DNA of 64,000 nucleotides. Origin: Escherichia coli. Lineage in GTDB: Bacteria > Pseudomonadota > Gammaproteobacteria > Enterobacterales > Enterobacteriaceae. Below the pieces are notes generated by a model. It was given only the letters and a program-made list of their open reading frames with translations. It was not told where the DNA came from and searched no databases. The stretch is taken from assembly GCF_030384885.1 (NCBI RefSeq), contig NZ_CP128613.1, one strand, 5' to 3'. This document shows, piece by piece, positions 10,373 through 61,968 of the stretch. The first letter of the stretch is position 1. The number at the start of each line of letters is the position of its first letter. Both the position numbers and the translations under genes were made by a program.

Positions 10373-10387
10373 TAAACATCTTCATTT

Positions 10388-10418: not shown

Positions 10419-10432
10419 ACACCGAGGTCATT

Positions 10433-11932: not shown

Positions 11933-12922
11933 ATGACAGAGAAAACTCTTGCCAGTCCGAAACCTTCGGAAATTCCCATTGCAAATAATTTTAAAAAAGT
12001 CTTCAGGCAATATGGCGGTATCCTCAGTGGAATGGTGGTGTTAATCATTCTGTTCAGTTTTATTAATGACAGTTTTTTTACTGCCAATAACATTACTAAT
12101 ATTATTCTTCAGGTTTCGATAATTGCAATTACCGCCTATGGAATGACTTATGTACTTTTGCTTGGCGATATTGATTTATCGGTCGGTTCAACCATTGCAT
12201 TGATTGGCACATTTGCTGCGCTTGGGGCTTCATGGGGAATTCCATTTATTTTATTGGTCCCATTATCCATTATTGCAGCCCTGGCTTTGGGGATGATAAA
12301 TGGTGGCTTGACGGCTATAGCGGGTATCCCTTCGTTTATTGTCACCGTTGCTACTATGGGGATCTTCCGTGGTATCGCTTATATAGTGACCGATGGTATG
12401 CCCATCATGATTAAAGATGATGCCTTTCTGGCGCTGGGGAATGGAGAATTTCTCTATATACCTATTCCTATCTGGATATTAATCATCTTATTGCTGATTA
12501 ACCACTTCATTCTTACTAAAACAACCTTTGGACGAAAAATTTATATCACTGGTGGTAATAAAGAAGCGGCAGTTTATTCAGGGATAAATGTCACCCGCTT
12601 GAAAATTAAAGTCTTTATGATTACAGCCGTGCTGGCAGGTATCAGCGGGATGATCCTCGCCTCACGCCTCTATTCCGGGCAACCGAATTCCGCGTTGAGC
12701 TACGAACTGGATGCTATTGCCGCGGCTGTACTGGGAGGCACCAGCCTGAACGGCGGCTATGGAACCGTGGTGGGGACGGTGATCGGCGCATTAACCATCG
12801 GCGTTATTAATAATGGCATGAACTTAATGAATGTTCCCTATTTTTACCAGATGGTGGTTAAAGGATTAGTCATTCTTGTAGCCGTTTATTTTGACGTAAG
12901 AAATAAAAGAAAACGCAGCTAA
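11933..12922 (+). CDS. sugar ABC transporter permease (RbsC-like)
   Basis: 329 aa polytopic membrane protein; ATG immediately after the ATPase stop codon. Confidence 0.85.
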   Translation: MTEKTLASPKPSEIPIANNFKKVFRQYGGILSGMVVLIILFSFINDSFFTANNITNIILQVSIIAITAYGMTYVLLLGDIDLSVGSTIALIGTFAALGASWGIPFILLVPLSIIAALALGMINGGLTAIAGIPSFIVTVATMGIFRGIAYIVTDGMPIMIKDDAFLALGNGEFLYIPIPIWILIILLLINHFILTKTTFGRKIYITGGNKEAAVYSGINVTRLKIKVFMITAVLAGISGMILASRLYSGQPNSALSYELDAIAAAVLGGTSLNGGYGTVVGTVIGALTIGVINNGMNLMNVPYFYQMVVKGLVILVAVYFDVRNKRKRS

Positions 12923-12943
12923 TCATTTCAAGGAATTAATCAT

Positions 12944-13906
12944 ATGAGTAAGGTCTTCACAATTGGAGAAATTCTGGTTGAAATTATGGCGAGTAAAATC
13001 GGCCAGCCATTTGATCAACCAGGTATCTGGAACGGCCCTTATCCCAGTGGTGCGCCCGCTATTTTTATCGACCAGGTGACACGTCTTGGCGTTCCGTGCG
13101 GCATCATTAGCTGTGTGGGGAATGATGGCTTTGGTGATATTAATATACATCGTCTGGCTGCTGACGGTGTGGATATCAGGGGGATTTCAGTCTTACCTCT
13201 GGAAGCTACCGGGAGTGCCTTTGTTACTTATCATAACTCTGGCGATCGCGATTTTATTTTTAATATCAAGAATGCCGCTTGCGGTAAATTATCGGCGCAG
13301 CATGTTGATGAAAATATTCTGAAGGACTGTACCCATTTTCATATTATGGGTTCATCCCTGTTTTCATTCCATATGGTAGACGCAGTAAAAAAAGCAGTAA
13401 CCATCGTTAAAGCAAATGGTGGCGTTATTTCTTTCGACCCTAATATTCGTAAAGAGATGCTCGATATTCCAGAAATGCGTGACGCCCTCCACTTTGTTCT
13501 TGAGTTAACAGATATCTATATGCCCAGCGAGGGAGAAGTGTTGCTCTTGTCGCCACACTCGACACCGGAGCGTGCAATCGCTGGTTTTCTTGAAGAAGGT
13601 GTTAAAGAGGTGATTGTGAAGCGCGGCAATCAAGGTGCCAGTTACTACTCCGCGAATGAGCAGTTTCATGTTGAGAGCTATCCGGTGGAAGAAGTTGACC
13701 CGACCGGTGCGGGAGACTGCTTTGGTGGCGCGTGGATTGCCTGCCGCCAGCTAGGGTTTGACGCCCATCGGGCATTACAATATGCCAACGCCTGCGGTGC
13801 ACTGGCGGTAACCCGACGTGGCCCAATGGAGGGAACGTCTCGCCTTGCGGAAATCGAAGCGTTCATCCAGCGCCATGACATGTCCATTCGGGAAGCAGCA
13901 CAATGA
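12944..13906 (+). CDS. pfkB-family carbohydrate kinase (island kinase 2)
   Basis: 320 aa; N-terminal GEILVE motif and C-terminal DPTGAGDCFG; clear paralog of the kinase at 6455..7411. Confidence 0.85.
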   Translation: MSKVFTIGEILVEIMASKIGQPFDQPGIWNGPYPSGAPAIFIDQVTRLGVPCGIISCVGNDGFGDINIHRLAADGVDIRGISVLPLEATGSAFVTYHNSGDRDFIFNIKNAACGKLSAQHVDENILKDCTHFHIMGSSLFSFHMVDAVKKAVTIVKANGGVISFDPNIRKEMLDIPEMRDALHFVLELTDIYMPSEGEVLLLSPHSTPERAIAGFLEEGVKEVIVKRGNQGASYYSANEQFHVESYPVEEVDPTGAGDCFGGAWIACRQLGFDAHRALQYANACGALAVTRRGPMEGTSRLAEIEAFIQRHDMSIREAAQ

Positions 13907-14949
13907 AAAACGAAATTTGGTCGTGGATTGGCGATCTCTCGCAGGTTGCCGGAATTAAACACTATGAGTTATGTAGTGGCAGATCAAAGGGGACAGAAGC
14001 GTTTGATGTCCGTACTGGTGCGGGATTGGCATTTACGGTGGTAAAAGATCGCGCGCTGGATATTGCATGGGCCAGCTACAAGGACACTGCGCTCTCTTTT
14101 ATCACCCCCAACGGCATTGTCGCCCCCGCTTTTTTTGAGTCTCAGGGCAACGGGTTTTTACGTAGCTTCTACGCGGGGTTACTGACTACCTGCGGACTTA
14201 GCTACATTGGCACGCCCTGTGAGGATAACGGAGAAACGCTGGGATTACACGGACGTTTGGCTGCGACACCAGCGGAAGAGGTGGGATATCGCACAGAACG
14301 GACCGACGACGGCATTGAATTTGTCATCAATGGCAAATTACGGGAAACGCGATTGTTCGGTGAAAATCTGACGTTGGAAAGGACCATTCGCTGCCGCTAT
14401 GGCGAAAATGTGCTGCGCATTGAAGACAAGGTGACTAATCATGGTTTCACCCGCCAGCCGCTGCAAATTCTTTATCACTTTAATTACGGCTGGCCTTTAT
14501 TATCGCCACAGGCAGAAATCTTGCTGTCGGCTAAAAGCGTAACGCCACGAACCCCGCATGCGGCGGAAGGGTTAACCAGTCATCTGGAGATTTGTACCCC
14601 ACAGCCCGGTTTTGACGAGCAGGTTTACTATCTCACGTTGAATAGCGACAGTCAGGGGATGAGTAAAGTTGCGCTGGTGAACGCCGAACTGGGGTGGGGA
14701 ATTTACGAGAAATTCGACACCATGCAGCTACCCAACTTTATCCAGTGGAAAAATTTAGGCGCGGGTGAATATGTTATGGGGCTGGAGGTCAGCAATAGTT
14801 TTCCTGACGGTCGTGATAAAGAACGAGCGCAGGGGCGTCTGCCCTTTATAGAGCCAGGGGAAACAAAGACATACTGCTTTGAGCTGGGAATTGTTGATGG
14901 CGATGCTGAAATTAGCGCGTTGAAAGCGGAAATTGCAAGCTACCGTTAG
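13903..14949 (+). CDS. DUF4432-like / mutarotase-like protein of unknown function
   Basis: 348 aa; start overlaps the kinase 2 stop (ATGA); family assignment from recall only and tentative. Confidence 0.65.
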   Translation: MKNEIWSWIGDLSQVAGIKHYELCSGRSKGTEAFDVRTGAGLAFTVVKDRALDIAWASYKDTALSFITPNGIVAPAFFESQGNGFLRSFYAGLLTTCGLSYIGTPCEDNGETLGLHGRLAATPAEEVGYRTERTDDGIEFVINGKLRETRLFGENLTLERTIRCRYGENVLRIEDKVTNHGFTRQPLQILYHFNYGWPLLSPQAEILLSAKSVTPRTPHAAEGLTSHLEICTPQPGFDEQVYYLTLNSDSQGMSKVALVNAELGWGIYEKFDTMQLPNFIQWKNLGAGEYVMGLEVSNSFPDGRDKERAQGRLPFIEPGETKTYCFELGIVDGDAEISALKAEIASYR

Positions 14950-35891: not shown

Positions 35892-36164
35892 ATGAATATT
35901 TATACCTTTGATTTTGATGAGATTGAGAGTCAGGAGGATTTTTATCGCGACTTTAGCCAAACCTTTGGTCTGGCAAAAGATAAAGTACGCGATCTCGACT
36001 CTCTATGGGATGTGTTAATGAACGATGTCCTGCCGCTACCACTTGAGATTGAATTTGTTCATCTGGGAGAGAAAACGCGTCGCCGTTTTGGCGCGTTAAT
36101 ATTGCTGTTTGATGAGGCAGAGGAAGAGCTGGAAGGGCATTTGCGTTTTAATGTTCGTCATTAG
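35892..36164 (+). CDS. yhcO: barstar-like protein YhcO
   Basis: 90 aa ([21 protein letters not shown]...); conserved neighbour of aaeB. Confidence 0.8.
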
Positions 36165-36166
36165 CG

Positions 36167-36190
36167 CAAAAAAAGCCCCCGAACCGGGGG
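36167..36190 (-). terminator. Rho-independent terminator downstream of yhcN
   Basis: Hairpin gcccccgaaccgggggc with a T run on the minus strand. Confidence 0.5.
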
Positions 36191-36218
36191 CAATATCGTC
36201 GGACAAGACGATGAGGGT

Positions 36219-36482
36219 TTATTTGTACAGTTCAGCCGTAGCGTGCCAGGTGTCACCGCTACGAGCTTCAGTAATCTGGTAGGCCGTTGCGCCTTTCTCT
36301 TCCGCTTTTTTGTTCAGCATTTCACGCATATCCATTGGCGAAGACGCCACACCACTTACGGATACGGTCCCGATTGCTTCACGATTTTGTGCTTGTGCAG
36401 CATCAATGGAGTCGGCAGCGAATGCACCGAAAGAGAGAACAGAAAGTACGCTTAATGCAGCAACAGTGGTTTTGATTTTCAT
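36219..36482 (-). CDS. yhcN: periplasmic stress-response protein YhcN (DUF1471)
   Basis: ORF 36219..36533; start MKIKTTVAALSVLSVLSFGAFA (signal peptide) gives 87 aa. Confidence 0.8.
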   Translation of the reverse strand: MKIKTTVAALSVLSVLSFGAFAADSIDAAQAQNREAIGTVSVSGVASSPMDMREMLNKKAEEKGATAYQITEARSGDTWHATAELYK

Positions 36483-36846
36483 GATTTTTACCTCGACATA
36501 ATCTTTTAGCTGGGCCTTTGTTTCGTGACCCATATCACAAAATCAAGTATACACTAATTATTGAACTAATTAATACCACGCTAACTTTTTCAGTTGATAC
36601 TAAGTGTTAAAAGTGTGAGTTTTAATAACAAAAAAGAATTAAAAACACGGTTATTTATTATTAATTCTATTATTTTCAATTAGATAATAAATTTTGCATA
36701 ATGTGCTTTTTTTAACTTATGTATTCATTATGTGAATGATACGTCGCGCTAAAACGCACTATTCGTTAAATTAATCGTAGGAGAAAGCAGGGGGATGAGA
36801 GGGAAAAGCAACATTTTCCCCGCCGCCAGAAGCGACGGGGCAGAGA

Positions 36847-37320
<474 letters not shown>

Positions 37321-37351
37321 TCACCCGATATGGTGGTTGATACAACATTAT

Positions 37352-37378
37352 TGTGCATACAGATGAATTTTTATGCAA
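37352..37378 (-). promoter_or_regulatory. candidate ARG box in the argR promoter
   Basis: tgcatacagatgaatttttatgcaaa resembles the ARG-box pattern TNTGAAT(W4)ATTCANW; argR autoregulation is established knowledge. Confidence 0.4.
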
Positions 37379-37676
37379 ACAGTCAGCCCTGAAGAAGGCT
37401 GAAATAATGTTATGAAAGAGCGGGATTTTATCAAATTTCGTTATTGAGAAACATGCCTGCGTCACGACATGCAAATTCTGCTTAAAAGTAAATTAATTGT
37501 TATCAAATTGATGTTGTTTTGGCTGAACGGTAGGGTATATTGTCACCACCTGTTGGAATGTTGCGCTAATGCATAAGCGACTGTTAATTACGTAAGTTAG
37601 GTTCCTGATTACGGCAATTAAATGCATAAACGCTAAACTTGCGTGACTACACATTCTTGAGATGTGGTCATTGTAA

Positions 37677-38690
<1,014 letters not shown>

Positions 38691-38706
38691 TTGATTAGCG
38701 GATAAT

Positions 38707-38745
38707 AAAAAACCGGAGCACAGACTCCGGTTTTTTGTTTTGAGC
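38707..38745. terminator. bidirectional Rho-independent terminator (mdh / degS)
   Basis: aaaaaaccggagcacagactccggttttttgtttt: hairpin flanked by A and T runs between convergent genes. Confidence 0.7.
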
Positions 38746-38752
38746 GCACGAC

Positions 38753-39820
38753 TTAATTGGTTGCCGGATATTCCTGAATGGTGACCTGCAGCGTTAACTG
38801 CTTATCATCACGCATCACGACAACCGGGATCACCGAGCCAGGGCGAATTTCCGCCACCTGATCCATCGTCTCCAGAGCAGAGATGGCCGGTTTGTTATCC
38901 ACCGAAATAATCAAATCATTGACCTGTATACCCGCATTCGCCGCCGGGCCGTCAGGCGACACTTCATTAACTACGATACCTTGCAGTTGATCTATGCCAC
39001 CGCCCTGCGCATGCAGTGGTGCGATCTCACGTCCGCCGATACCAATGTAGCCGCGGATCACGCGACCATCGCGGATCAGCTTATCCATAATTTTGGTTGC
39101 TAACTGGAAAGGAATCGCAAAGCCGATGCCTTCCGGCGTTTCGCCATCGTTACTCTTATCAAACGACAGCGTGTTAATGCCCATCAGTTCGCCCAGCGAG
39201 TTCACCAGCGCGCCGCCAGAGTTACCGTGGTTAATGGAAGCATCGGTTTGCAGGAAGTTTTGCCGCCCGGTCGGGTTCAGACCAATTCGACCCGTGGCAC
39301 TAATAATCCCCTGGGTAATGGTCTGCCCGAGGTTGTACGGGTTACCGATCGCCAGTACCACGTCACCAATGTGCGGTACGCGACGTGCATTGATTGGAAT
39401 GGTAGGTAAACCGCCAGTGGCATTAATTTTAAGTACCGCCAGATCGGTTAGAGAGTCAGATCCCACCAGCAATGCTTCAAATACACGTCCATCTTGTAAG
39501 GCGACGATGATCTGATCGGCGTCGTTGATGACGTGTTTATTGGTGATGATATAACCGCGTTGATCCATGATTACACCGGATCCCAGGGTGCGGATCTCAA
39601 GCTGGTTGTGAGAGTTGGTGTTCAAACCACGGTTGTAAACGTTAACCACCGCTGGCGCGGCGCGGCGAACCGCCAGATTATAGCTGGCAGGCGTCTCATC
39701 GGTACTGTCAAATTGCGGAGTGGAAAGCGGGTTAAGGCTGCGCAGCGAAGGCATGGCAACCAGCAGAATAGCGCCGACAATTAATCCAATCGCAACGGAA
39801 CGTAAGAGCTTCACAAACAT
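38753..39820 (-). CDS. degS: periplasmic serine endoprotease DegS
   Basis: 355 aa; N-terminal TM anchor, trypsin-like domain (GNSGGAL) and one PDZ domain. Confidence 0.95.
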   Translation of the reverse strand: MFVKLLRSVAIGLIVGAILLVAMPSLRSLNPLSTPQFDSTDETPASYNLAVRRAAPAVVNVYNRGLNTNSHNQLEIRTLGSGVIMDQRGYIITNKHVINDADQIIVALQDGRVFEALLVGSDSLTDLAVLKINATGGLPTIPINARRVPHIGDVVLAIGNPYNLGQTITQGIISATGRIGLNPTGRQNFLQTDASINHGNSGGALVNSLGELMGINTLSFDKSNDGETPEGIGFAIPFQLATKIMDKLIRDGRVIRGYIGIGGREIAPLHAQGGGIDQLQGIVVNEVSPDGPAANAGIQVNDLIISVDNKPAISALETMDQVAEIRPGSVIPVVVMRDDKQLTLQVTIQEYPATN

Positions 39821-45784: not shown

Positions 45785-47152
45785 TTAATAAAATAGCGTG
45801 ATTGTGGCAATCATATTCACCACGAAACCGACTGCCATGGGGATCGCTGTCCGCTTCACCACTGCAAAAGGCGAAACACCTGCAATTCCTGATGTAACGA
45901 CCACCACCGCAGTAATTGGCGAAACCGCGCGCGCCAGCGTCGTGGCAAAATGCATCGGCATAATCATTACCACCGCTGGTACATGTAGTCCGGCTGCGAT
46001 ATTCGGAATAAGACTGGCAAATGACATAAACGGCGCATTGCCTGAGCCCATCACAATGGCACAAATGGCAATGACCAGTGCCATAATAATCATCACGCCA
46101 ATACCGCCCAGACCAGAATGCTCTGCGCCCCTGATAACCGCATCGACAGTGCCAATTGTCGTTAAGCCCTTCGCAAATATTTCACCCGCGACCACCAGCG
46201 TTACCACGTTGGCAAACTGCGTACCCATGCCGTCAAAAAACGCCTGCACATCGTCCATTGTTTCGCGCAAATTATGCTTGCGGAAAAACTCAACAAACAT
46301 CGTCACCGTCAAACTCAGTAACATCACCACCACCAGATGCAGTTCTGACTGCATCAGTCCAGCGTGGGCGAGGAACAGCGAGCCGAGCATCAGGATTAAC
46401 GGCATCACCGGTAAAATGGCGTAATAGAGCGGCGGGACATTATCGAGAGCTTTTTGCTCCGCCTGTTCGTGATTGATATTTTTATCTTTTTTGTCAAAAG
46501 CGCGTTGCACGAAAAAGTGAGAGATCGCTACCGAGATAATGACGCAAGAGGCGACCGGAAGCTGGTAGTGGAAGAAGTAAGTGGCGATTTTCATTCCTGC
46601 CACCTGAGCCGCAAAAATAGAGTTCGTTTCCAGAATCCCCCACTCAATGGACATCGTGGTTGCGATAACTGCCACCGCAGAGAGGCGACTTACTCCCAGA
46701 CTCACTAGTGTTGGAAATAAGGTGACCATCAGCAACATACCCAGACCGGAGGCGCTGGTAATAAACTGCGCCATGATTTGGCCGATAACGTAAGTCGCCG
46801 ACAGAATAAGATACGGCGAGCGAATGAGTTTTAACGGGCGGCTTAACAAGCTCACCATCGCCCGACTGGCTCCTATGCGCTCCATGTAGCGGGCATACCC
46901 GCCCACCGCCATAATCGACAGCCCCAATCCGGCAATGCGGTTGGACAGCATGCGCAGGATTTCATTATAAATATCGACGATCAAGTAGCCGCTGCTTTTG
47001 GCGGGATCGAGTACACCACCGAACCCTAACCAGACACCGCACATCATCAGGAAGATACCTGCGGCAGCCAGCACCACCTGAGGTTTGTAGTTTTTCAGGA
47101 TCAAATAGCCCATCGTCATTAATACGATGACAGATATAATTATGCCGAACAT
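45785..47152 (-). CDS. dcuD: DcuC-family anaerobic C4-dicarboxylate transporter homolog
   Basis: ORF 45785..47170; start [23 protein letters not shown] gives 455 aa; polytopic membrane protein between sspB and nanR. Confidence 0.85.
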
Positions 47153-47531
47153 TGTTGAACTCCGTGTCAAAAGAAAACGGTCAATCCCATAAACGGCAGA
47201 TTGAAAACAATGATGTTATATTTTTTGCAAGGCTATTTATGGTGCGGATGTCGTGTTTTTAATTGTGGATGAGGTGATTTTTCATTAAAAAATATGCGCT
47301 TATGATTATTTTGTAAGAACACATTCATAATATTCATAATACTTGTTAATAGTCTTATGAATAATTCAATCGTGATGTTTTTATCTGCGTTACATTAATT
47401 TTTCGCAATAGTTAATTATTACGTTAATTATGATAATAATGAGACACAAAGAGAAAAAACCGCCATTTCCCCCTACTTTCAATCCTGTGATAGGATGTCA
47501 CTGATGATGTTAATCACACTGACCTTACAGA

Positions 47532-48323
47532 ATGGGCCTTATGAACGCATTTGATTCGCAAACCGAAGATTCTTCACCTGCAATTGGTCGCAACTTGCGC
47601 AGCCGCCCGCTGGCGCGTAAAAAACTCTCCGAAATGGTGGAAGAAGAGCTGGAACAGATGATCCGCCGTCGTGAATTTGGCGAAGGTGAACAATTACCGT
47701 CTGAACGCGAACTGATGGCGTTCTTTAACGTCGGGCGTCCTTCGGTGCGTGAAGCGCTGGCAGCGTTAAAACGTAAAGGTCTGGTGCAAATAAACAACGG
47801 CGAACGCGCTCGCGTCTCACGTCCTTCTGCGGACACCATCATCGGGGAGCTTTCCGGCATGGCGAAAGATTTCCTTTCTCATCCTGGCGGAATTGCCCAT
47901 TTCGAACAATTACGTCTGTTCTTTGAATCCAGCCTGGTGCGCTATGCGGCTGAACATGCCACCGATGAGCAAATTGATTTGCTGGCAAAAGCACTGGAAA
48001 TCAACAGTCAATCGCTGGATAACAACGCGGCATTCATTCGTTCAGACGTTGATTTCCACCGCGTGCTGGCGGAGATCCCCGGCAATCCGATCTTCATGGC
48101 GATCCACGTTGCCCTGCTCGATTGGCTGATCGCCGCACGCCCAACCGTAGCTGATCAGGCTCTGCACGAGCATAACAACGTTAGCTATCAACAGCATATT
48201 GCGATCGTTGATGCGATCCGCCGCCACGATCCCGATGAAGCCGATCGCGCGTTGCAATCGCATCTCAACAGCGTCTCTGCTACCTGGCACGCCTTCGGTC
48301 AGACCACCAACAAAAAGAAATAA
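47532..48323 (+). CDS. nanR: sialic acid operon repressor NanR (GntR/FadR family)
   Basis: 263 aa with a GntR-type HTH ([26 protein letters not shown]). Confidence 0.95.
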
Positions 48324-48386
48324 TGCCACTTTAGTGAAGCAGATCGCATTATAAGCTTTCTGTATGGGGTGTTGCTTAATTGATCT

Positions 48387-48409
48387 GGTATAACAGGTAT
48401 AAAGGTATG
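48387..48409 (+). promoter_or_regulatory. NanR operator (three GGTATA repeats) in the nanA promoter
   Basis: ggtataacaggtataaaggtatg immediately upstream of nanA; the GGTATA-repeat operator is established for NanR. Confidence 0.7.
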
Positions 48410-48444
48410 TCGTTTATCAGACAAGCATCACTTCAGAGGTATTT

Positions 48445-49338
48445 ATGGCAACGAATTTACGTGGCGTAATGGCCGCACTCCTGACTCCTTTTGATCAACA
48501 ACAAGCACTGGATAAAGCGAGTCTGCGTCGCCTGGTTCAGTTCAATATTCAGCAGGGCATTGACGGCTTATATGTCGGGGGGTCGACCGGTGAAGCCTTT
48601 GTACAAAGCCTTTCCGAGCGTGAACAGGTACTGGAAATCGTCGCCGAAGAGGCGAAAGGCAAGATTAAACTCATCGCTCATGTAGGTTGCGTCAGCACTG
48701 CTGAAAGCCAACAGCTTGCGTCTTCAGCCAAACGTTATGGCTTCGATGCCGTCTCCGCCGTCACGCCGTTCTACTACCCTTTCAGCTTTGAAGAACACTG
48801 CGATCACTATCGGGCAATTATTGATTCGGCGGATGGGTTGCCGATGGTGGTGTACAACATTCCGGCGTTAAGCGGCGTTAAACTGACCCTGGATCAGATT
48901 AACACTCTGGTTACGTTGCCTGGTGTCGGCGCGCTGAAACAGACCTCTGGCGATCTCTATCAGATGGAGCAGATCCGTCGTGAACATCCGGATCTGGTGC
49001 TCTATAACGGTTACGACGAAATCTTTGCTTCTGGTTTGTTGGCGGGCGCTGATGGTGGTATCGGCAGTACTTACAACATCATGGGCTGGCGTTATCAGGG
49101 TATCGTGAAGGCGCTGAAAGAAGGCGATATCCAGACCGCGCAGAAGCTGCAAACCGAATGTAATAAAGTCATTGATTTGCTGATCAAAACGGGCGTATTC
49201 CGCGGCCTGAAAACGGTCCTGCATTATATGGATGTCGTTTCTGTGCCGCTGTGCCGCAAACCGTTTGGTCCGGTAGATGAAAAATATCTGCCAGAACTGA
49301 AAGCGCTGGCCCAGCAGTTGATGCAAGAGCGCGGGTGA
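48445..49338 (+). CDS. nanA: N-acetylneuraminate lyase
   Basis: 297 aa DHDPS-fold protein ([34 protein letters not shown]...). Confidence 0.96.
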
Positions 49339-49446
49339 GTTGTTTCCCCTCGCTCGCCCCTACCGGGTGAGGGGAAATAAACGCATCTGTACCCTACAAT
49401 TTTTATACCAAAGCGTGTGGGCATCGCCCACCGCGGGAGACTCACA

Positions 49447-50937
49447 ATGAGTACTACAACCCAGAATATCCCGTGGTATCGCCATCTCAACCGCGCACAA
49501 TGGCGGGCATTTTCCGCTGCCTGGTTGGGATATCTGCTTGACGGTTTTGATTTCGTTTTAATCGCCCTGGTACTCACCGAAGTACAAGGTGAATTCGGGC
49601 TGACGACGGTACAGGCAGCAAGCCTGATCTCCGCAGCCTTTATCTCTCGCTGGTTCGGCGGCCTGATGCTCGGCGCTATGGGTGACCGCTACGGACGTCG
49701 TCTGGCAATGGTCACCAGCATCGTTCTCTTCTCGGTCGGGACGCTGGCCTGCGGTTTTGCGCCAGGCTACATCACCATGTTTATCGCTCGTCTGGTCATC
49801 GGCATGGGGATGGCGGGTGAATACGGTTCCAGCGCCACCTATGTCATTGAAAGCTGGCCAAAGCATCTGCGTAACAAAGCCAGTGGTTTTCTGATTTCAG
49901 GCTTCTCGGTGGGTGCCGTCGTTGCCGCTCAGGTCTATAGCCTGGTGGTTCCGGTCTGGGGCTGGCGTGCGCTGTTCTTTATCGGCATTTTGCCAATCAT
50001 CTTTGCTCTCTGGCTGCGTAAAAACATCCCGGAAGCGGAAGACTGGAAAGAGAAACACGCAGGTAAAGCACCAGTACGCACAATGGTGGATATTCTCTAC
50101 CGTGGTGAACATCGTATCGCCAATATCGTGATGACACTGGCGGCGGCCACTGCGCTGTGGTTCTGCTTCGCTGGTAACCTGCAAAATGCCGCAATCGTCG
50201 CTGTTCTCGGGCTGTTATGTGCCGCAATCTTTATCAGCTTTATGGTTCAGAGTACGGGCAAACGCTGGCCAACGGGCGTAATGCTGATGGTGGTCGTGTT
50301 GTTTGCTTTCCTCTACTCATGGCCGATTCAGGCGCTGCTGCCAACGTATCTTAAAACTGAACTTGCTTATAACCCGCATACTGTCGCCAATGTGCTGTTC
50401 TTTAGTGGCTTTGGTGCGGCGGTGGGGTGCTGCGTCGGTGGCTTCCTCGGTGACTGGCTGGGAACCCGCAAAGCGTACGTTTGTAGTCTGCTGGCCTCGC
50501 AGCTGCTGATTATTCCGGTATTTGCGATTGGCGGCGCAAACGTCTGGGTGCTCGGTCTGTTACTGTTCTTCCAGCAAATGCTTGGTCAGGGCATCTCCGG
50601 GATTTTACCGAAACTGATCGGCGGTTATTTCGATACCGACCAGCGTGCGGCGGGGCTGGGCTTTACCTACAACGTTGGCGCATTGGGTGGTGCACTGGCC
50701 CCAATCCTCGGCGCGTTGATCGCTCAACGTCTGGATCTGGGCACTGCCCTGGGATCGCTTTCGTTCAGTCTTACATTTGTGGTGATCCTGCTGATTGGGC
50801 TGGATATGCCTTCTCGTGTTCAGCGTTGGCTGCGCCCGGAAGCACTGCGTACTCATGACGCTATCGATGGCAAACCATTTAGCGGTGCCGTGCCGTTTGG
50901 CAGCGCCAAAAACGATTTAGTCAAAACCAAAAGTTAA
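49447..50937 (+). CDS. nanT: sialic acid MFS transporter NanT
   Basis: ORF 49417..50937; start [19 protein letters not shown] gives 496 aa. Confidence 0.92.
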
Positions 50938-50984
50938 TCCTGTTGCCCGGTCTCTGTACCGGGCCTTTCGCTAAGGGAAGATGT

Positions 50985-51670
50985 ATGTCGTTACTTGCAC
51001 AACTGGATCAAAAAATCGCTGCTAACGGTGGCCTGATTGTCTCCTGCCAGCCGGTTCCGGACAGCCCGCTCGATAAACCCGAAATCGTCGCCGCCATGGC
51101 ATTAGCGGCAGAGCAGGCGGGCGCGGTTGCCATTCGCATTGAAGGTGTGGCAAATCTGCAAGCCACGCGTGCGGTGGTGAGCGTGCCAATTATCGGGATT
51201 GTGAAACGCGATCTGGAGGATTCTCCGGTACGCATCACGGCCTATATTGAAGATGTTGATGCGCTGGCGCAGGCGGGTGCGGACATTATCGCCATTGACG
51301 GCACCGACCGCCCGCGTCCGGTGCCTGTTGAAACGTTGCTGGCACGTATTCACCATCACGGTTTACTGGCGATGACCGACTGTTCCACGCCGGAAGACGG
51401 CCTGGCATGCCAAAAGCTGGGAGCCGAAATTATTGGCACTACGCTTTCTGGCTATACCACGCCTGAAACGCCAGAAGAGCCGGATCTGGCGCTGGTGAAA
51501 ACGTTGAGCGACGCCGGATGTCGAGTGATTGCCGAAGGGCGTTACAACACGCCTGCTCAGGCGGCAGATGCGATGCGCCACGGCGCGTGGGCGGTGACGG
51601 TCGGTTCTGCCATTACGCGTCTTGAACACATTTGTCAGTGGTACAACACAGCGATGAAAAAGGCGGTGCT

Positions 51671-51674
<4 letters not shown>
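50985..51674 (+). CDS. nanE: N-acetylmannosamine-6-phosphate 2-epimerase
   Basis: ORF 50943..51674; start [23 protein letters not shown] gives 229 aa. Confidence 0.92.
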
Positions 51675-53007
<1,333 letters not shown>

Positions 53008-53027
53008 AACTTAGTTCGTTTTAAAGA

Positions 53028-53055
53028 TTCTGCAGACACTGTCTGCAGAATTCGA
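53028..53055. repeat. palindromic unit (core CAGACA-NN-TGTCTG) downstream of nanQ
   Basis: aattctgcagacactgtctgcagaatt, a near-perfect 27 bp palindrome; same family as three copies inside yhcG. Confidence 0.55.
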
Positions 53056-53066
53056 AACCGCTGAAA

Positions 53067-54194
53067 TTAACGGCGTCTATAGCCTTCCTCTAGCACCGCC
53101 TGTGTTCGAACGAGTTCATCCGCGAGTCGTTTTTCATCAGGTAGTTGCATCTTATATTCGCTTGCCAGAACGGTGTTAGGCAAACCTGCCAGCGCATAAT
53201 GCGCTTCTCCGGCTCCTTTCTCTGCACAGAGAACCAGACCGATGGGCGGATTTTCATCCGGTAGCGTCCAGTGCTCTTTGGCGTAGTTGAGATACATATT
53301 CATCTGTCCGGCATCGCTATAGCTGAATTTGCCCACTTTTAGATCGGCGATTAGCAGGCAGCGTAAACGGCGGTGGAAAAACAGCAGATCGACACGAAAC
53401 CAGTTGTCATCAATGCGTAACCTTCGCTGTCGACCAACAAAGGCAAAATCATCCCCAAGTTCCAGCATGAAATCCATCAGGTGATTGATCAGCGCCTCCT
53501 CAAAATCAGATTCTGAGTATTCATCTTTCAACTCCAGAAATTCGAGCACAAAGGGATCGCGTATCGCCTGTTGCGGAAGAATATGCATCTCGGCAGGAGC
53601 GTGTTGTTGCAGCATGGCTGATTTGTCATGTGACAGTAGTGTTCGCTCATAAAATTGGGTCGCAATTTGCCGTTCTAGCTGGCGAACAGACCAGCCACAG
53701 CGGAGCGTCTCTTTTTCATAAAAGCTGCGGGCGTCAGCGTTTTTAACGGAAAGTAGACGGACGTAGGTGGACCAGGGCAGGGGGAACGATTTGGCAGACA
53801 GCGTCTGCCAAATCTTTGCCGATGGGAATTCTGCAGACGGTGTCTGCGGAATTCCCAATGGTGTTAATTCGCCAGACACTGTCTGGCGAATTTCAACATG
53901 TTGAAAAAAGAGGTAAAAAAGCCTCATTTGGCGTAAGTTTTTTGCAGAGAACCCACGCTTATACCTTAGACTTAAATCCTTTGATAGTCGCTTGATTAGC
54001 TGCGCACCATACGCAGCTCTGGCCTCGCCACCTTGTTCAAATTCGACAATTCGTCGGCCAATTTCCCAGTATGTCGCGGTCATCAGCGCGTTAACACTAC
54101 GTACCGTTTCCGTCCTGGCGCTATCGACCAGATGAATAATGCCGTCGTGGATTTGCTGGTAGCCTGCTGTGGTTCCTTCTGAGAGCGATTCCAT
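53067..54194 (-). CDS. yhcG: DUF1016 / PD-(D/E)xK nuclease-superfamily protein YhcG
   Basis: 375 aa; family and K-12 length assigned from recall; contains an internal triplicated peptide motif encoded by palindromic DNA units. Confidence 0.75.
   Translation of the reverse strand: MESLSEGTTAGYQQIHDGIIHLVDSARTETVRSVNALMTATYWEIGRRIVEFEQGGEARAAYGAQLIKRLSKDLSLRYKRGFSAKNLRQMRLFYLFFQHVEIRQTVSGELTPLGIPQTPSAEFPSAKIWQTLSAKSFPLPWSTYVRLLSVKNADARSFYEKETLRCGWSVRQLERQIATQFYERTLLSHDKSAMLQQHAPAEMHILPQQAIRDPFVLEFLELKDEYSESDFEEALINHLMDFMLELGDDFAFVGRQRRLRIDDNWFRVDLLFFHRRLRCLLIADLKVGKFSYSDAGQMNMYLNYAKEHWTLPDENPPIGLVLCAEKGAGEAHYALAGLPNTVLASEYKMQLPDEKRLADELVRTQAVLEEGYRRR
53790..53897. repeat. three tandem palindromic units embedded in frame in yhcG
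   Basis: tttggcagacagcgtctgccaaa (53790-53812), gggaattctgcagacggtgtctgcggaattccc (53824-53856) and aattcgccagacactgtctggcgaatt (53867-53893); they encode the repeats IRQTVSGE / IPQTPSAEF / IWQTLSAK. Confidence 0.55.
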
Positions 54195-54377
54195 TATCTT
54201 TCCCTTTATATGGCGCAGTGTTGAATAATGGAATCAGCTATACGCCGGGCATCTGCCGGTAACAATCCAGATGTGCGTATTACATTGGTTTTCTTCAGAT
54301 TATGCGAGGCGCTTTCCAGAACGAAAGGAGAATTTCAGCGCCGACTCTTTTCTGAGGAGGCGGCGCTGGGACAGAGC

Positions 54378-55808
<1,431 letters not shown>

Positions 55809-58800
55809 TTACTGCGCCTGCACGCGCAACTCTGCTGCGCTACGACTACGGTGACCCAGCAGTGCTTTTACATCACTGGACTTCGGTTTAACCAGCGCAA
55901 ATTTCGTGGCGAAGGTTGACCAGTTAGCCAGAATCTCTTCACCACGCTGGGAACCGGTATGCTGAACATGCTCGGTGATAAGACCACGCAGATGCTCTTC
56001 ATGGATCGCCAGGGAGTCAACGCTTAAGACCTCGACCAGTTCCGGGTTAACGCGTTTGCGGAAATCGCCGCTTTCATCGAGAACGTAAGCGAAGCCGCCG
56101 GTCATGCCCGCGCCGAAGTTAACGCCGGTTTTACCCAGAATACAGACAATACCGCCCGTCATATATTCACAGCCGTTGTCGCCAATGCCTTCTACCACGG
56201 TGATAGCACCGGAATTACGCACGCCGAAACGTTCACCCGCGCGGCCTGCGGCATACAGACGACCACCGGTCGCGCCATACAGGCAGGTATTGCCGATAAT
56301 GCTTGCTTCATGGCTGCGGAAGGCTGAGCCAACCGGAGGACGAATGGCGATTAAGCCGCCCGCCATGCCTTTACCGACATAGTCGTTGGCATCACCGGTC
56401 AGGTACAGTTCCACGCCGCCCGCGTTCCACACACCGAAGCTCTGGCCTGCGGTGCCGTTGAAGTACGCTTTGATCGGATCGGCTGCCAGACCCTGATCGC
56501 CGTGCGTCTGGGCGATATAGCCCGAAAGCGATGCACCCACGGAACGGTCGGTGTTGCGAATATCGAACCAGAAGGTTTTGCTCTGACGCTCATCGACAAA
56601 CGGTTTCGCCTGTTGCAGCAACTGCGCGTTTAGCAGGCCATTATCAAACGGCGGGTTGTTTTCGGTGCAGTAGAGCGCCTTACCTGGATGCGGCTCGGCA
56701 GTCTCCAGCAGCTTCGACAGTGCCAGTTTCTGCTGTTTGGCGGTGAAACCGTCCAGCTCTTTCAGCAGGTCGGTGCGACCAATCAGATCCACCAGGCGCG
56801 TTACGCCCAGTTGCGCCATCAGCTCGCGGGTTTCACGGGCGATAAATTCAAAGTAGTTGGTCACCTTGAACGGCAAGCCGTGATAGTGGTTCTTACGCAG
56901 TTTGTCATCCTGAGTTGCTACACCGGTGGCGCAGTTGTTCAGGTGGCAGATTCGCAGGTATTTACAGCCGAGCGCCACCATCGGGCCAGTGCCGAAGCCG
57001 AAGCTTTCTGCGCCGAGAATCGCCGCTTTGATGATATCGACACCTGTTTTCAGGCCGCCATCGACCTGCAAACGGATCTTATGACGCAAGCCGTTGGCAA
57101 CCAGCGCCTGTTGTGTTTCAACAAGCCCCAGTTCCCACGGGCAGCCTGCGTATTTCACCGATGAAAGCGGACTTGCGCCAGTGCCGCCGTCATAGCCTGC
57201 GATGGTGATTAAATCGGCATAAGCTTTCGCTACACCTGTGGCGATGGTACCAACGCCCGGTTCGGACACCAGCTTCACGGAGATCATCGCTTTCGGGTTA
57301 ACCTGCTTGAGGTCGAAAATGAGCTGCGCTAAGTCCTCGATAGAGTAGATATCGTGGTGCGGCGGCGGGGAGATCAGCGTCACTCCGGGCACCGAATAGC
57401 GCAGTTTGGCAATGTAAGGAGTGACTTTGTCGCCCGGCAACTGACCGCCTTCGCCCGGCTTCGCGCCTTGGGCGACTTTAATCTGAATGACGTCAGCATT
57501 GACCAGATACGCCGGAGTAACACCGAAGCGACCGGACGCCACCTGCTTGATGCGCGACACTTTGTTAGTGCCGTAGCGCGCCGGATCTTCACCCCCTTCA
57601 CCGGAGTTCGAGTTACCGCCGATGCTGTTCATCGCTTCCGCCAGCGCCTCGTGGGCTTCCGGGCTTAATGCGCCGATAGACATCGCGGCGGTATCGAAGC
57701 GTTTAAACAGTTCGCTTGCCGGTTCAACATCAGCAATGTTGACCGCGTTTTCACCCGGCGTAATTGCCAGCAGATCGCGCAGCGTGGTTGCCGGACGCTC
57801 ATTAACCAGCTTCGCGTATTCCTGATAGTCGCTATACTCACCGCTCTGTACCGCCTGTTGCAGCGTGCGCACCACGTCCGGGTTGTAGGCGTGGTATTCG
57901 CCACCGTGCACATATTTCAATAGCCCGCCCTGGCTGATGGGCTTGCGCGCCAGCCAGGCACGTTTCGACAGATTCAGCAGATCCTGCTGGAAGTCTTCAA
58001 AGCTTGCCCCACCAATGCGGCTAACCGCGCCCTGGAAGCACAGGCCCACTACATCATCGTGCAGACCGACCGCTTCAAACAGTTTCGAGCAGCGGTAAGA
58101 CGCGATGGTGGAGATGCCCATTTTGGACATGATTTTGTACAAGCCTTTGTTGATGCCGTTACGGTAGTTGAGCATCACGGTACGATAATCTTTGGCAATC
58201 GCGTGGGTGTCTACCAGGCGGCCCAGCGTTTCATAGGCCAGGTACGGATAAATAGCCGTCGCGCCGAAGCCCAGCAACACGGCGAAGTGGTGCGGGTCGC
58301 GGGCGCTGGCGGTTTCGACGATGATATTGGCATCGCAACGCAGGCTTTGATCGACCAGACGAGTCTGGATCGCGCCAACCGCCATCGGAGCCGGAACCGG
58401 CAGGCGATCTTTAGCGATATTCCGGTCAGAAAGCACCAGCAGCACGGTGCCGCTGCGCACCATCTGTTCTGCTTTGTCGCACAGCTCTTTGACCGTCGCT
58501 TCGAGCGTGGTTTTAGTGACGTCAAAGGTGATATCCAGCGTATTTGCGCGGTAGTGCTCCTCTTTCATCGTCGTGAGCTGTTTGAAATCGGAGTAGAGCA
58601 GAATCGGCGATTTAAAGCTTAAACGGTGCGCCTGGCCTTCTGCTTCACAGAAGACGTTCATTTCACGCCCGATGCTGGTGGCGAGCGACATAACATGCGC
58701 TTCACGTAGCGGGTCGATTGGCGGGTTAGTGACCTGCGCAAACTGCTGGCGGAAGTAGTCGTAAATAATGCGCGGCTGGCTGGAGAGCACGGCGAATGGG

Positions 58801-60362
58801 GTGTCGTCGCCCATCGAACCGACGGCTTCCTGACCGTTTTCACCCAGGACGCGGATCACCGAATCCAGCTCTTCCGCGCTGTAGTTAAACTGTTTCTGGT
58901 AGCTGGCAAGCGTGTCGTCGTCCAGTTCGCGGCTACCCACTTCTTCATCGGGCAAGTCTTCAAACGGCACCAAACGGCGGACGTTTTTCTCCATCCACTC
59001 TTTATAAGGATGGCGGCTTTTCAGGTCGTCATCGGTTTCAGCAGAGTGCAGAATACGCCCACTGCGGGTGTCGATCACCATCAGTTCACCCGGCCCTACG
59101 CGGCCTTTTTCGACCACTTCGTCAGGCTGATAATCCCAGATGCCCACTTCAGAGGCGCAGGTGATGAGCTTATCTTTGGTGATGACATAGCGCGCCGGAC
59201 GCAGACCGTTACGGTCGAGGTTACAGGCGGCAAAACGACCATCGGACATCACGATGCCCGCCGGACCATCCCACGGCTCCATATGCATGGAGTTAAAGTC
59301 GAAGAAAGCGCGCAGCTCCGGGTCCATATCCGGGTTGTTCTGCCAGGCGGGTGGCACTAACAGACGCATGGCGCGGATGATATCCATCCCGCCCGCCAGC
59401 AGCAGTTCCAGCATGTTATCCATGGAACTGGAGTCAGAACCGGTTTCGTTGACGAACGGCGCGGCGTCGTGCAGGTCAGGGATCAGCGGTGTCTGGAATT
59501 TATAGGTACGCGCGCGCGCCCATTGGCGGTTACCGGTGATGGTGTTGATTTCACCGTTATGCGCCAGGTAGCGGAACGGCTGCGCCAGCGGCCAGCGCGG
59601 TACGGTGTTAGTGGAGAAGCGCTGGTGGAACAGGCAGATGGCCGATTCCAGACGCAGGTCCGCGAGGTCCAGGTAGAAGCGCGGCAGATCCGCCGGCATA
59701 CACAGACCTTTATAGATGTTCACCAGATTCGACAGGCTACAGACGTAGAAGTCTTTGTCAGCTTCGAGACGCTTTTCAATGCGGCGGCGGGCGATAAACA
59801 GACGGCGCTCCATATCGCGCGGACGCCAACCTGCCGGGGCGTTCACAAAAATTTGCTCAATGCGTGGCAGAGAGGAGAGGGCGATTTCACCCAGCACGCC
59901 TTCGTTAGTGGGGACATCACGCCAGCCGACAATCGACAACGTTTCGCGTTGCAGCTCTTCTTCAACGATGCGGCGTGCGGTCGCGGCGAGTTCAGGATCT
60001 TTATTCAGGAAAAGCATCCCGACGGCGTAGTTTTTCGCTAAACGCCAGCCTCGCTCCTGCGCAACAATGCGAAAAAAGCGATCCGGTTTTTGTAACAGCA
60101 AGCCGCAACCGTCACCGGTTTTACCATCGGCGAGAATCGCGCCACGGTGCTGCATACGGGCCAGTGCGTGTATTGCAGTACGCACTACCTTGTGGCTAGG
60201 TTCGCCTTCTATGTGGGCGATCAGGCCGAAACCACAGTTATCCCTCTCAAGGGATTTATCGTACAACATATCGTGAACCTCCCCCAGGCTCTGCGGGAAC
60301 CCCACTTCCGAACCGCTGCGCACGGGCACAGAAAGAGCGTGGCGACGGGGTTTGCGTTTCAT
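55809..60362 (-). CDS. gltB: glutamate synthase large subunit
   Basis: ORF 55809..60377; start MKRKPRRHALSVPVRSG gives 1517 aa; amidotransferase N-terminus with catalytic Cys (CGFGLIAHIEG). Confidence 0.96.
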   Translation of the reverse strand: MKRKPRRHALSVPVRSGSEVGFPQSLGEVHDMLYDKSLERDNCGFGLIAHIEGEPSHKVVRTAIHALARMQHRGAILADGKTGDGCGLLLQKPDRFFRIVAQERGWRLAKNYAVGMLFLNKDPELAATARRIVEEELQRETLSIVGWRDVPTNEGVLGEIALSSLPRIEQIFVNAPAGWRPRDMERRLFIARRRIEKRLEADKDFYVCSLSNLVNIYKGLCMPADLPRFYLDLADLRLESAICLFHQRFSTNTVPRWPLAQPFRYLAHNGEINTITGNRQWARARTYKFQTPLIPDLHDAAPFVNETGSDSSSMDNMLELLLAGGMDIIRAMRLLVPPAWQNNPDMDPELRAFFDFNSMHMEPWDGPAGIVMSDGRFAACNLDRNGLRPARYVITKDKLITCASEVGIWDYQPDEVVEKGRVGPGELMVIDTRSGRILHSAETDDDLKSRHPYKEWMEKNVRRLVPFEDLPDEEVGSRELDDDTLASYQKQFNYSAEELDSVIRVLGENGQEAVGSMGDDTPFAVLSSQPRIIYDYFRQQFAQVTNPPIDPLREAHVMSLATSIGREMNVFCEAEGQAHRLSFKSPILLYSDFKQLTTMKEEHYRANTLDITFDVTKTTLEATVKELCDKAEQMVRSGTVLLVLSDRNIAKDRLPVPAPMAVGAIQTRLVDQSLRCDANIIVETASARDPHHFAVLLGFGATAIYPYLAYETLGRLVDTHAIAKDYRTVMLNYRNGINKGLYKIMSKMGISTIASYRCSKLFEAVGLHDDVVGLCFQGAVSRIGGASFEDFQQDLLNLSKRAWLARKPISQGGLLKYVHGGEYHAYNPDVVRTLQQAVQSGEYSDYQEYAKLVNERPATTLRDLLAITPGENAVNIADVEPASELFKRFDTAAMSIGALSPEAHEALAEAMNSIGGNSNSGEGGEDPARYGTNKVSRIKQVASGRFGVTPAYLVNADVIQIKVAQGAKPGEGGQLPGDKVTPYIAKLRYSVPGVTLISPPPHHDIYSIEDLAQLIFDLKQVNPKAMISVKLVSEPGVGTIATGVAKAYADLITIAGYDGGTGASPLSSVKYAGCPWELGLVETQQALVANGLRHKIRLQVDGGLKTGVDIIKAAILGAESFGFGTGPMVALGCKYLRICHLNNCATGVATQDDKLRKNHYHGLPFKVTNYFEFIARETRELMAQLGVTRLVDLIGRTDLLKELDGFTAKQQKLALSKLLETAEPHPGKALYCTENNPPFDNGLLNAQLLQQAKPFVDERQSKTFWFDIRNTDRSVGASLSGYIAQTHGDQGLAADPIKAYFNGTAGQSFGVWNAGGVELYLTGDANDYVGKGMAGGLIAIRPPVGSAFRSHEASIIGNTCLYGATGGRLYAAGRAGERFGVRNSGAITVVEGIGDNGCEYMTGGIVCILGKTGVNFGAGMTGGFAYVLDESGDFRKRVNPELVEVLSVDSLAIHEEHLRGLITEHVQHTGSQRGEEILANWSTFATKFALVKPKSSDVKALLGHRSRSAAELRVQAQ

Positions 60363-60943
60363 ACGCGCGCCTCGCATTCGCCCCCTTGTTGTCCTTTTCG
60401 CATCGATTAATACGGTGAAGAGGGGATCTCAATTACTGCATAAATATGATGAGCAGGCTGCTCATCCAGAAAGCTTCCAGCGGATTTCCAACTTATCGGG
60501 AAAGCTGATACAGGTCAAATGGCAAGCTTATTGGTACAGAAATGTGCTTTAGCGCAAAATTCTTTATTAATTGTCTGAAATTAAAATAGATTTTCTCTTT
60601 ACGGCTAAAAGGGGAGTCGTTAGAGAAACTGCCAACTCCTGACTGTCATAAAGGCGTGTTAACCCTTATCCTGCCTTGAACTGATGAGAAAACCAGCATT
60701 TTATACTGCCTTAATTGGTAATGACGTTTCATGCTACTGTTTTTGCCTAAAATCCATAAGGAGATAAAAAAATCTGACACAAGATAAGCAAAAGTGATTT
60801 ATGTGATTATGAATGAAATCTCGGTAATTTTGATTGATTATGCATTTGATAAAGGCAGGCCGGGACGATTGATCCAGGTCATCGCCGAATTGAGCTAAAA
60901 ATGGCAGGCTTTGGCCTCTTTTCAAGGCGCGGTCTATCAGATT
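60363..60943. promoter_or_regulatory. divergent gltB / yhcC promoter region
   Basis: 581 bp intergenic region between divergent genes, A/T-rich in its centre; the gltB promoter with a long leader is established knowledge. Individual sites not mapped. Confidence 0.4.
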
Positions 60944-61873
60944 ATGCAGTTACAGAAATTAGTCAATATGTTTGGTGGTGATCTCACCCGTCGTTATGGG
61001 CAAAAGGTGCATAAGCTGACGCTGCACGGCGGTTTTAGCTGCCCTAACCGTGACGGTACCATCGGGCGTGGTGGCTGCACATTCTGTAATGTTGCCTCGT
61101 TTGCCGATGAAGCGCAGCAGCATCATTCCATTGCCGAGCAACTGGCGCACCAGGCGAATTTAGTTAACCGCGCTAAACGCTATCTGGCCTACTTTCAGGC
61201 GTATACCAGCACCTTTGCGGAAGTTCAGGTGCTGCGTTCTATGTATCAGCAGGCGGTGAGCCAGGCCAATATTGTCGGTTTGTGTGTTGGTACCCGCCCG
61301 GACTGCGTGCCGGATGCGGTGCTGGATCTGCTTTGCGAATATAAGGACCAGGGCTACGAAGTGTGGCTGGAGCTGGGGCTACAAACCGCCCACGACAAAA
61401 CGCTGCATCGCATCAATCGCGGTCATGATTTTGCCTGCTATCAGCGCACGACCCAGCTGGCGCGTGAGCGCGGGCTGAAGGTGTGTTCTCACTTAATTGT
61501 CGGCCTGCCTGGCGAAGGGCAGGCTGAATGTTTGCAAACGCTGGAGCGAGTGGTTGAAACCGGCGTGGACGGTATAAAGCTGCATCCGCTGCATATTGTG
61601 AAAGGCAGCATTATGGCGAAAGCCTGGGAAGCGGGGCGTTTGAATGGTATTGAACTGGACGATTACACGGTCACCGCCGGAGAAATGATTCGCCATACGC
61701 CACCGGAAGTGATCTACCACCGCATTTCCGCCAGCGCCCGTCGCCCGACGTTGCTTGCTCCGCTGTGGTGCGAAAATCGATGGACGGGAATGGTCGAGCT
61801 GGATCGCTATCTGAATGAACATGGCGTACAGGGATCGGCGCTGGGACGTCCGTGGCTACCTCCAACGGCGTAG
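60944..61873 (+). CDS. yhcC: radical SAM protein YhcC (TIGR01212 family)
   Basis: ORF 60911..61873; start MQLQKLVNMFGGDL gives 309 aa; cysteine cluster CPNRDGTIGRGGCTFC. Confidence 0.85.
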   Translation: MQLQKLVNMFGGDLTRRYGQKVHKLTLHGGFSCPNRDGTIGRGGCTFCNVASFADEAQQHHSIAEQLAHQANLVNRAKRYLAYFQAYTSTFAEVQVLRSMYQQAVSQANIVGLCVGTRPDCVPDAVLDLLCEYKDQGYEVWLELGLQTAHDKTLHRINRGHDFACYQRTTQLARERGLKVCSHLIVGLPGEGQAECLQTLERVVETGVDGIKLHPLHIVKGSIMAKAWEAGRLNGIELDDYTVTAGEMIRHTPPEVIYHRISASARRPTLLAPLWCENRWTGMVELDRYLNEHGVQGSALGRPWLPPTA

Positions 61874-61968
61874 GCCATTGAGGGGAATTCCGCATTTCTC
61901 ACACAATTTATAACGTAACTGTCAGAATTGGGTATTATTGGGGCAGGTTGTCGTGAAGGAATTCCCTA

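Follow-up and report, generated by a model that had tools for sequence, protein, structure and literature searches.

A gltD-yhcG junction without the gltF-yhcADEF fimbrial block is the commonest state of a variable locus in Escherichia coli

Yhc is reportedly a member of clade β in the scheme of Nuccio and Baumler and is said to feature in the work of Korea et al. (2010). In E. coli K-12, the locus has the gene order gltB-gltD-gltF-yhcA-yhcD-yhcE(IS5)-yhcF-yhcG-yhcH(nanQ), which the original prediction on this DNA had given correctly, as we found on checking it against the K-12 locus. YhcD is the usher (PapC_N, Usher, and PapC_C domains), YhcA is the periplasmic chaperone (PapD_N domain), and GltF and YhcF are subunits whose proteins carry the Pfam domain DUF1120. 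The gltF-yhcADEF block has a G+C content of 43.1%, versus 55 to 57% in the gltBD flanks. We saw no integrase, tRNA, or att repeats at its borders in K-12, which instead fall on a family of palindromes, and the distribution of the block is patchy.

Yhc has been described as the only β-class chaperone-usher locus of E. coli and, in the ETEC genomes studied, as present in phylogroup A only (PMC5216030). Wurpel et al. (2013) called it "sporadic" and "highly under-represented" and did not decide between an ancient remnant and a recent gain (PMC3559732). In BL21(DE3), gltF is missing beside gltBD (PMC6150544).

We analyzed this locus in a window of E. coli DNA, by which we mean the whole stretch of 64 kb. 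The plus-strand nan operon (nanR-A-T-E-K-Q, 47532 to 53007) converges on the minus-strand genes gltB, gltD, and yhcG, with nanQ as the conserved left flank of the variable gltD-nanQ interval and gltD, whose protein shares 99% amino acid identity with that of K-12, as the conserved right flank (Table 1). The gltD stop codon (TTA on the plus strand, 54378 to 54380) and the yhcG start codon (CAT on the plus strand, 54192 to 54194) set a gap of exactly 183 bp (54195 to 54377), as had been stated. Searches of the entire window by tblastn with K-12 queries found neither the usher YhcD nor the chaperone YhcA, and no homologue of the DUF1120 subunits GltF and YhcF. The absence of the block, which had been read from this gap, is therefore borne out for the 64 kb. 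The accompanying claims that the block was "expected here" and that the strain "has lost" it are K-12-centered assumptions and are unsupported for this strain; only about 21% of complete E. coli genomes have the block. An ATG-initiated open reading frame of 252 amino acids (54228 to 54986, plus strand), which is antisense to gltD and starts in the spacer, matches no family and is almost certainly spurious.

Table 1. Features of the nanQ-gltB region in the window, with copies of its repeat family in comparison loci
Feature	Position	Strand	Remarks
nanQ (yhcH)	52543..53007	+	Last gene of nanATEKQ; NCBIfam NF040884, N-acetylneuraminate anomerase (E = 6.4e-71); RefSeq annotation of NZ_CP027579.1
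T unit	53027..53066		Between nanQ stop and yhcG stop; perfect palindrome ATTCTGCAGACAcTGTCTGCAGAAT (53027-53051) plus 15 bp
yhcG	53067..54194	-	Intact, 375 aa; Pfam DUF1016_N and YhcG_C; RefSeq annotation of NZ_CP027579.1
R1, R2, and R3	53789..53892		Three in-frame tandem 39-bp units in yhcG
R1 palindrome	53789..53813		R1 to R3 palindromes are 25 to 27 nt, perfect or near-perfect
R2 palindrome	53827..53853		
R3 palindrome	53866..53892		
yhcG-proximal spacer	54195..54321	-	yhcG leader/promoter region; K-12 alignment
Haplotype-specific 56 bp	54322..54377	-	Adjoins gltD stop, hairpin inside; no K-12 block match
Hairpin	54336..54368		12-nt arms, 92% complementary; 9-nt loop; 8 perfect G+C-rich pairs plus 3 inner pairs
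gltD	54378..55796	-	Glutamate synthase small subunit; intact, 472 aa; TIGR01318 (E = 1.8e-270)
gltB	55809..60269	-	Glutamate synthase large subunit; 1486 aa per RefSeq annotation of NZ_CP027579.1; ORF list
Repeat copies in other loci	L001 9464-9488; L003 11963-11990; L005 9001-9110; L007 3423-3486; L090 14141-14291		

Alignment with K-12 divides the gap into two parts. The yhcG-proximal 127 bp are collinear with the K-12 spacer between yhcG and yhcF and occur in all yhcG-bearing haplotypes, with identity to K-12 falling towards the junction from 98% inside yhcG to 92%, 82%, and finally 57%. The gltD-proximal 56 bp, which contain the hairpin, gave no match to the K-12 block with blastn-short, and their sequence was found only in loci of the same yhcG-only type, namely, L002, L005 (strain PEC131), L006 (a divergent lineage discussed below), and L007 (the Escherichia albertii type strain). 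The two sequences become homologous again at about 54376, two bases before the gltD stop codon. At the site of the 56 bp, K-12 carries about 7 kb, comprising yhcF-yhcE::IS5-yhcD-yhcA-gltF, an AT-rich segment of 0.5 kb, and, beside the gltD stop, a different palindrome, ATTCGCCAGACAcaGTCTGGCGAAT, followed by 15 bp; this palindrome with its 15 bp is not in the window. Because each side has sequence that the other does not share, the two states differ by a replacement, 56 bp in one and about 7 kb in the other; neither a clean insertion nor a clean deletion connects them, and a simple deletion of the K-12 block is rejected as the origin of the window junction.

The junction itself bears no deletion scar. 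We found no residue of the block and no IS remnant, a repeat search across the junction returned no direct repeats beyond chance-length matches, and both gltD and yhcG are intact. A 10-nt inverted repeat that brackets yhcG (53059 to 53068 and 54331 to 54340) was set aside, as chance alone would yield about one such pair in 1.4 kb. The idea that the gltF-gltD spacers of K-12 and Escherichia marmotae hold a decayed fragment of yhcG is likewise not established, since the palindrome alone matches significantly, with 5 to 6 additional nucleotides in E. marmotae.

We investigated the states of this locus in a sample of 5,426 complete E. coli genomes. The contiguous nanQ-yhcG-gltD junction of the window was counted where at least 80% of the segment from 53000 to 55900 was matched as one place, and it was found in about 2,543 genomes (47%). 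About 721 genomes share the gltD-proximal spacer and have a truncated yhcG followed by a small "transposase" open reading frame (the type of PEC131, BL21, and HS), and in about 948 (Nissle and other B2-type strains) nanQ converges directly on gltD, and yhcG and the block are both missing; yhcG is thus itself accessory. The gltF-yhcADEF block was counted with the K-12 yhcD-yhcA-gltF segment, using blastn settings sensitive to about 65 to 70% identity. Hits came from about 1,146 genomes (21%; 1,122 at a coverage of at least 80%), all at an identity of at least 99% with no divergent alleles, and the block is absent from the remaining 79%. Across the collection it lies on chromosomes only and, in nearly all cases, in one place per genome. 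Together the four classes cover 5,358 of 5,425 genomes. The commonest E. coli state is therefore yhcG without the Yhc block (47%, or 60% when truncated yhcG is counted), and the K-12 state, with both modules, is a minority represented by a single near-clonal allele.

The haplotype in the window, which we call yhcG-only, can be written as a contiguous nanQ, palindrome, yhcG, spacer of about 183 bp with the hairpin CAGCGCCG...CGGCGCTG, and gltD. As in K-12, gltB and gltD lie on one side and yhcG, nanQ, and nanK on the other, with order and orientation unchanged; the two loci also have in common the 127-bp yhcG leader and the palindrome that separates nanQ from yhcG. The yhcG-only haplotype differs in having the 56 bp with the hairpin where K-12 has its 7 kb, and the 5' end and leader of the K-12 yhcG are strongly diverged from those of the window. 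Loci of the BL21(DE3), HS, and PEC131 type resemble the window in the gltD-proximal spacer, the hairpin, and the lack of a fimbrial block, but the 3' two-thirds of their yhcG are replaced, from R1 onwards, by about 0.47 kb that include the 101-amino-acid "transposase" open reading frame. E. albertii NBRC 107761 also has the same spacer and hairpin beside gltD and no block, while its yhcG, unlike that of the window, is internally deleted. B2-type strains (Nissle 1917 and O6:K2:H1) have the same flanks and no block but, in contrast to the window, lack yhcG; their nanQ-gltD gap is 67 bp, with a single R3-identical palindrome and 15 bp, and its gltD-proximal sequence is of the K-12 type.

The spacer of the window is also found in other lineages. 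In the phylogroup-A-like strain PEC131 it is 96.7% identical over 183 bp, with 55 of 55 positions conserved in the haplotype-specific segment. In the E. albertii type strain NBRC 107761 it is 98.3% identical over 175 bp, and in L006, a divergent Escherichia lineage that is labelled E. coli and has about 92% gltD identity to everything else, it is 94.9% identical; in both, the haplotype-specific part is conserved at 48 of 48 positions. Among these lineages, gltD differs by 5 to 8%. The homologous spacer of K-12 is only 57 to 82% identical to that of the window and resembles a spacer of E. marmotae that also adjoins the block. Because the spacer, with the same hairpin beside the gltD stop, recurs in E. 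albertii (98% identity) and L006 (95%), the block-less haplotype did not originate in this strain, which it predates by far, and any loss of the block would lie in deep time; the two spacer types would thus be much older than E. coli. Recent transfer between species, instead of age, could also account for a spacer conservation between E. coli and E. albertii that exceeds that of gltD.

The block was traced in other species by searching with the K-12 YhcD protein and inspecting the genomic context of the matches. Some E. albertii strains have an orthologous gltF-yhcADEF (YhcD identity of 82% and GltF identity of 76%) between gltD and nanQ, without yhcG, and these strains and the block-less type strain share 99.5% identity in gltD. 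In E. marmotae we found a third allele of the block (YhcD, 67%; YhcF, 86%), followed by a decayed yhcG. β-class fimbriae are associated with the region downstream of gltD far beyond Escherichia: related operons (YhcD identity of 41 to 57%) abut gltD in Citrobacter, Kluyvera, and Enterobacter, in the opposite, convergent orientation. Such yhc-like β-class operons lie beside gltD in the Enterobacter, Citrobacter, and Kluyvera loci L015 (11467 to 17543), L016 (12009 to 15919), L093 (6465 to 11619), and L095 (4486 to 11601), and the operons of Kluyvera and E. asburiae include additional DUF1120 subunit genes. Klebsiella oxytoca has a yhc-like operon elsewhere, between corA and eamA. In several Enterobacteriaceae, gltD is directly beside nanQ or nanK (L008, L009, L020, L025, and L046).

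From these comparisons, the 183-bp interval is very probably the native, undamaged spacer of the yhcG-only haplotype at a multi-allelic hotspot where the gltBD and nan operons converge. As E. albertii has haplotypes with and without the block and E. marmotae has one with it, the sequences point to an old trans-species presence/absence polymorphism at the hotspot and not to a loss in the window strain or its lineage. All four combinations of yhcG and the Yhc block exist in Escherichia, which identifies them as independent modules. One, yhcG, is a candidate defence nuclease gene and the other, gltF-yhcADEF, is the chaperone-usher fimbrial operon of the β class, and each can occupy the site independently of the other. 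The mosaic identity profile between K-12 and the window suggests that homologous recombination within the conserved flanking genes, gltD at one end and yhcG/nanQ at the other, exchanges whole haplotypes.

A deeper history of loss deserves the most weight among the alternatives: the Escherichia ancestor, or that of a broader enterobacterial group, may have had a yhc-type operon beside gltD that was deleted before E. coli diversified, and the 56 bp would then be filler or a repaired end. The possibility had already been raised by Wurpel et al. (PMC3559732). It is a serious one, and we lean against it. Since yhc-like operons abut gltD in Citrobacter, Kluyvera, Enterobacter, and three Escherichia species, the block may be very old at this site and the block-less states may stem from deletion; within Escherichia, the orthologous blocks of phylogroup A-type E. 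coli, E. albertii, and E. marmotae have the same site and orientation, and the 127 bp upstream of yhcG are common to block-bearing and block-less haplotypes. Against it, the orientation is inverted outside Escherichia, gltD and nanQ are directly adjacent in several Enterobacteriaceae, the G+C content of the block (43%) is well below that of gltBD (55 to 57%), and the window holds no remnant of the block. Moreover, YhcD of E. marmotae (67%) is further from K-12 than that of E. albertii (82%), an order that contradicts the species tree, so that repeated horizontal arrival fits better than vertical descent. The converse idea, in which the ancestral locus was block-less and simply acquired the block by a recent insertion, was based on the E. 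albertii type strain, the prevalence of 21%, the identity of at least 99%, and the low G+C content; it is softened by the orthologous blocks in E. albertii and E. marmotae and the related ones in Citrobacter, Kluyvera, and Enterobacter.

That the window strain or its immediate lineage had a K-12-like gltF-yhcADEF and deleted it, as the original prediction held, is effectively refuted, and we regard it as very improbable. Beyond the expectation drawn from K-12, it can appeal to the recurrent deletions that this locus shows in other genomes (yhcG truncations, along with IS1, IS2, and IS5 insertions in the block). However, the junction is common to 2,543 genomes and to other Escherichia species, the 56 bp beside gltD have no counterpart in K-12, the K-12 yhcG leader is 18 to 43% diverged from that of the window, and there is no IS, flanking repeat, or truncated neighbor. 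As for the rest of the source genome, the absence of the block rests on a proxy, the nearest complete genome, that of E. coli 2013C-4282 (NZ_CP027579.1), which is identical at the locus and 99.5% identical over the first 50 kb; the source itself is a close relative of it outside the 5,426 complete genomes. The query joined the window junction to the reverse complement of K-12 yhcD'-yhcA-'gltF, which gives three places in K-12-type genomes; in 2013C-4282 it gave one match, the junction itself. Relocation of the block within the same genome, to another locus or a plasmid, is less likely still: the corA-eamA operon of K. oxytoca would be a precedent and a few E. coli with the window-type junction (e.g., NZ_CP098223.1) give a second chromosomal match to the chimeric query more than 12 kb from the junction, but the window lacks the block genes, the nearest genome has its single match at the junction, and the block is chromosomal, nearly always with a single place per genome.

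YhcG belongs to the PD-(D/E)XK nuclease family (PF17761, E = 9.2e-43; PF06250, E = 5.4e-56) and shares 98% amino acid identity with the K-12 protein. Its match to the PADLOC system PDC-S02 (PDLC04807; E = 4.6e-135) makes it a candidate single-gene anti-phage defence protein. DUF1016 genes are reported to be enriched beside restriction-modification and BREX loci (PMC9881135). The yhcG gene also contains three members of a family of 39-bp repeats, each with a palindrome, which we found by a combination of pattern search and repeat search and which Tandem Repeats Finder missed. The palindrome pattern has four matches in the 64 kb, with 0.14 expected. Outside the gene, the T unit is a further copy of the 39-nt repeat of yhcG and has the same sequence in K-12. 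The family (units of 39 to 40 nt with the core CAGACAnnGTCTG) is confined to the gltD-nanQ locus, with 1 to 5 copies per genome, and L006 has two of the 39-bp units instead of three. The palindrome at the gltD stop is identical to R3 in B2-type genomes (28/28) and nearly so in K-12 (25/26).

Several rearrangements of the locus end on these repeats. The yhcG truncation of the PEC131 type starts at R1 (53789), the deletion in the E. albertii type strain joins the extragenic T copy to R2, and the E. marmotae deletion ends at R3 (53865). Because four independent rearrangement end points fall on palindromes, we tentatively propose that the palindrome-bearing 39-bp units could be fragile or recombinogenic pivots that interconvert the states of a two-cassette hotspot kept as a trans-species polymorphism, with the window junction as one stable outcome. 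We hold this proposal to be doubtful.

The hairpin in the gap (cagcgccg...cggcgctg) exists as described. Folded in an 86-nt context, it has an energy of -23.2 kcal/mol (z = -1.67), and 14 of 200 shuffled sequences were as stable, so that its stability alone is not beyond chance. A consensus scan for intrinsic terminators returned 0 sites and no promoter, and the tail on the gltD strand, AAAUUCUCCUUUCGUU, has no U-run; for want of a T-run in the scan, a canonical intrinsic terminator is thus not supported. A search for known RNAs gave no Rfam family, the sole match being a chance miRNA (E = 0.16). The 33 nt of the hairpin are identical in E. albertii and in the divergent lineage L006, while the adjacent 9 bp between the hairpin and the gltD stop vary, which hints that it might serve gltBD as a 3' stem-loop or weak terminator in genomes that lack the block.

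On the other side of the spacer, yhcG might be expressed from the 127 bp that it has in common with the K-12 yhcG leader. The K-12 leader is reported to be transcribed and to be overlapped over 128 bp by the antisense RNA G0-10703 (PMC7967276), an overlap close to the length of the conserved 127-bp leader. An 11-nt perfect inverted repeat, GATTCCATTAT and ATAATGGAATC (54187 to 54197 and 54225 to 54235, 27 nt apart), spans the yhcG start codon and is largely conserved in K-12; with a likely ribosome-binding site in its loop, it could form a translation-control hairpin.

The segment from 53000 to 55900 is 100% identical to E. coli 2013C-4282. The window has 3 mismatches to this genome over 47000 to 61900 and is 99.5% identical to it over 1 to 50000 (223 mismatches plus small indels). 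The next-best genomes are about 97% identical at 53000 to 55900, versus 99.2 to 99.3% for the same relatives at 36000 to 39000, which suggests that the gltBD-yhcG segment of the window may be a rare, locally imported haplotype.

Other presence/absence differences were seen in the window. A C4-dicarboxylate transporter gene of the dcuC/dcuD family (45785 to 47152, minus strand), located between sspB and nanR, is another such polymorphism: it is present in the window and in PEC131, absent in the B2 type, in the E. albertii-type locus L089, and in E. marmotae, and a pseudogene in Z0117EC0005. Between yhdT and accC, which we take to be adjacent in K-12, the window has 8.5 kb (6418 to 14912) that encode two sugar kinases, a DeoR regulator, a tagatose-bisphosphate-type aldolase, an ABC transporter, and an aldose epimerase. 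This sugar-utilisation cluster is probably another accessory island.

The direct neighborhood of gltD and yhcG is an already documented strain-to-strain difference. As gltF-yhcADEF is accessory, phylogroup-restricted, and cryptic, and "gltBDF" is not a conserved operon, the absence of the block is unremarkable for this strain. The survey of 5,426 genomes puts numbers on the four states of the locus. Haplotypes with and without the block both appear to be older than E. coli, which bears on the question of remnant versus gain left by Wurpel et al. (2013), and yhcG, as a candidate defence gene, together with the palindromic repeats would be the locally unstable element of the locus.
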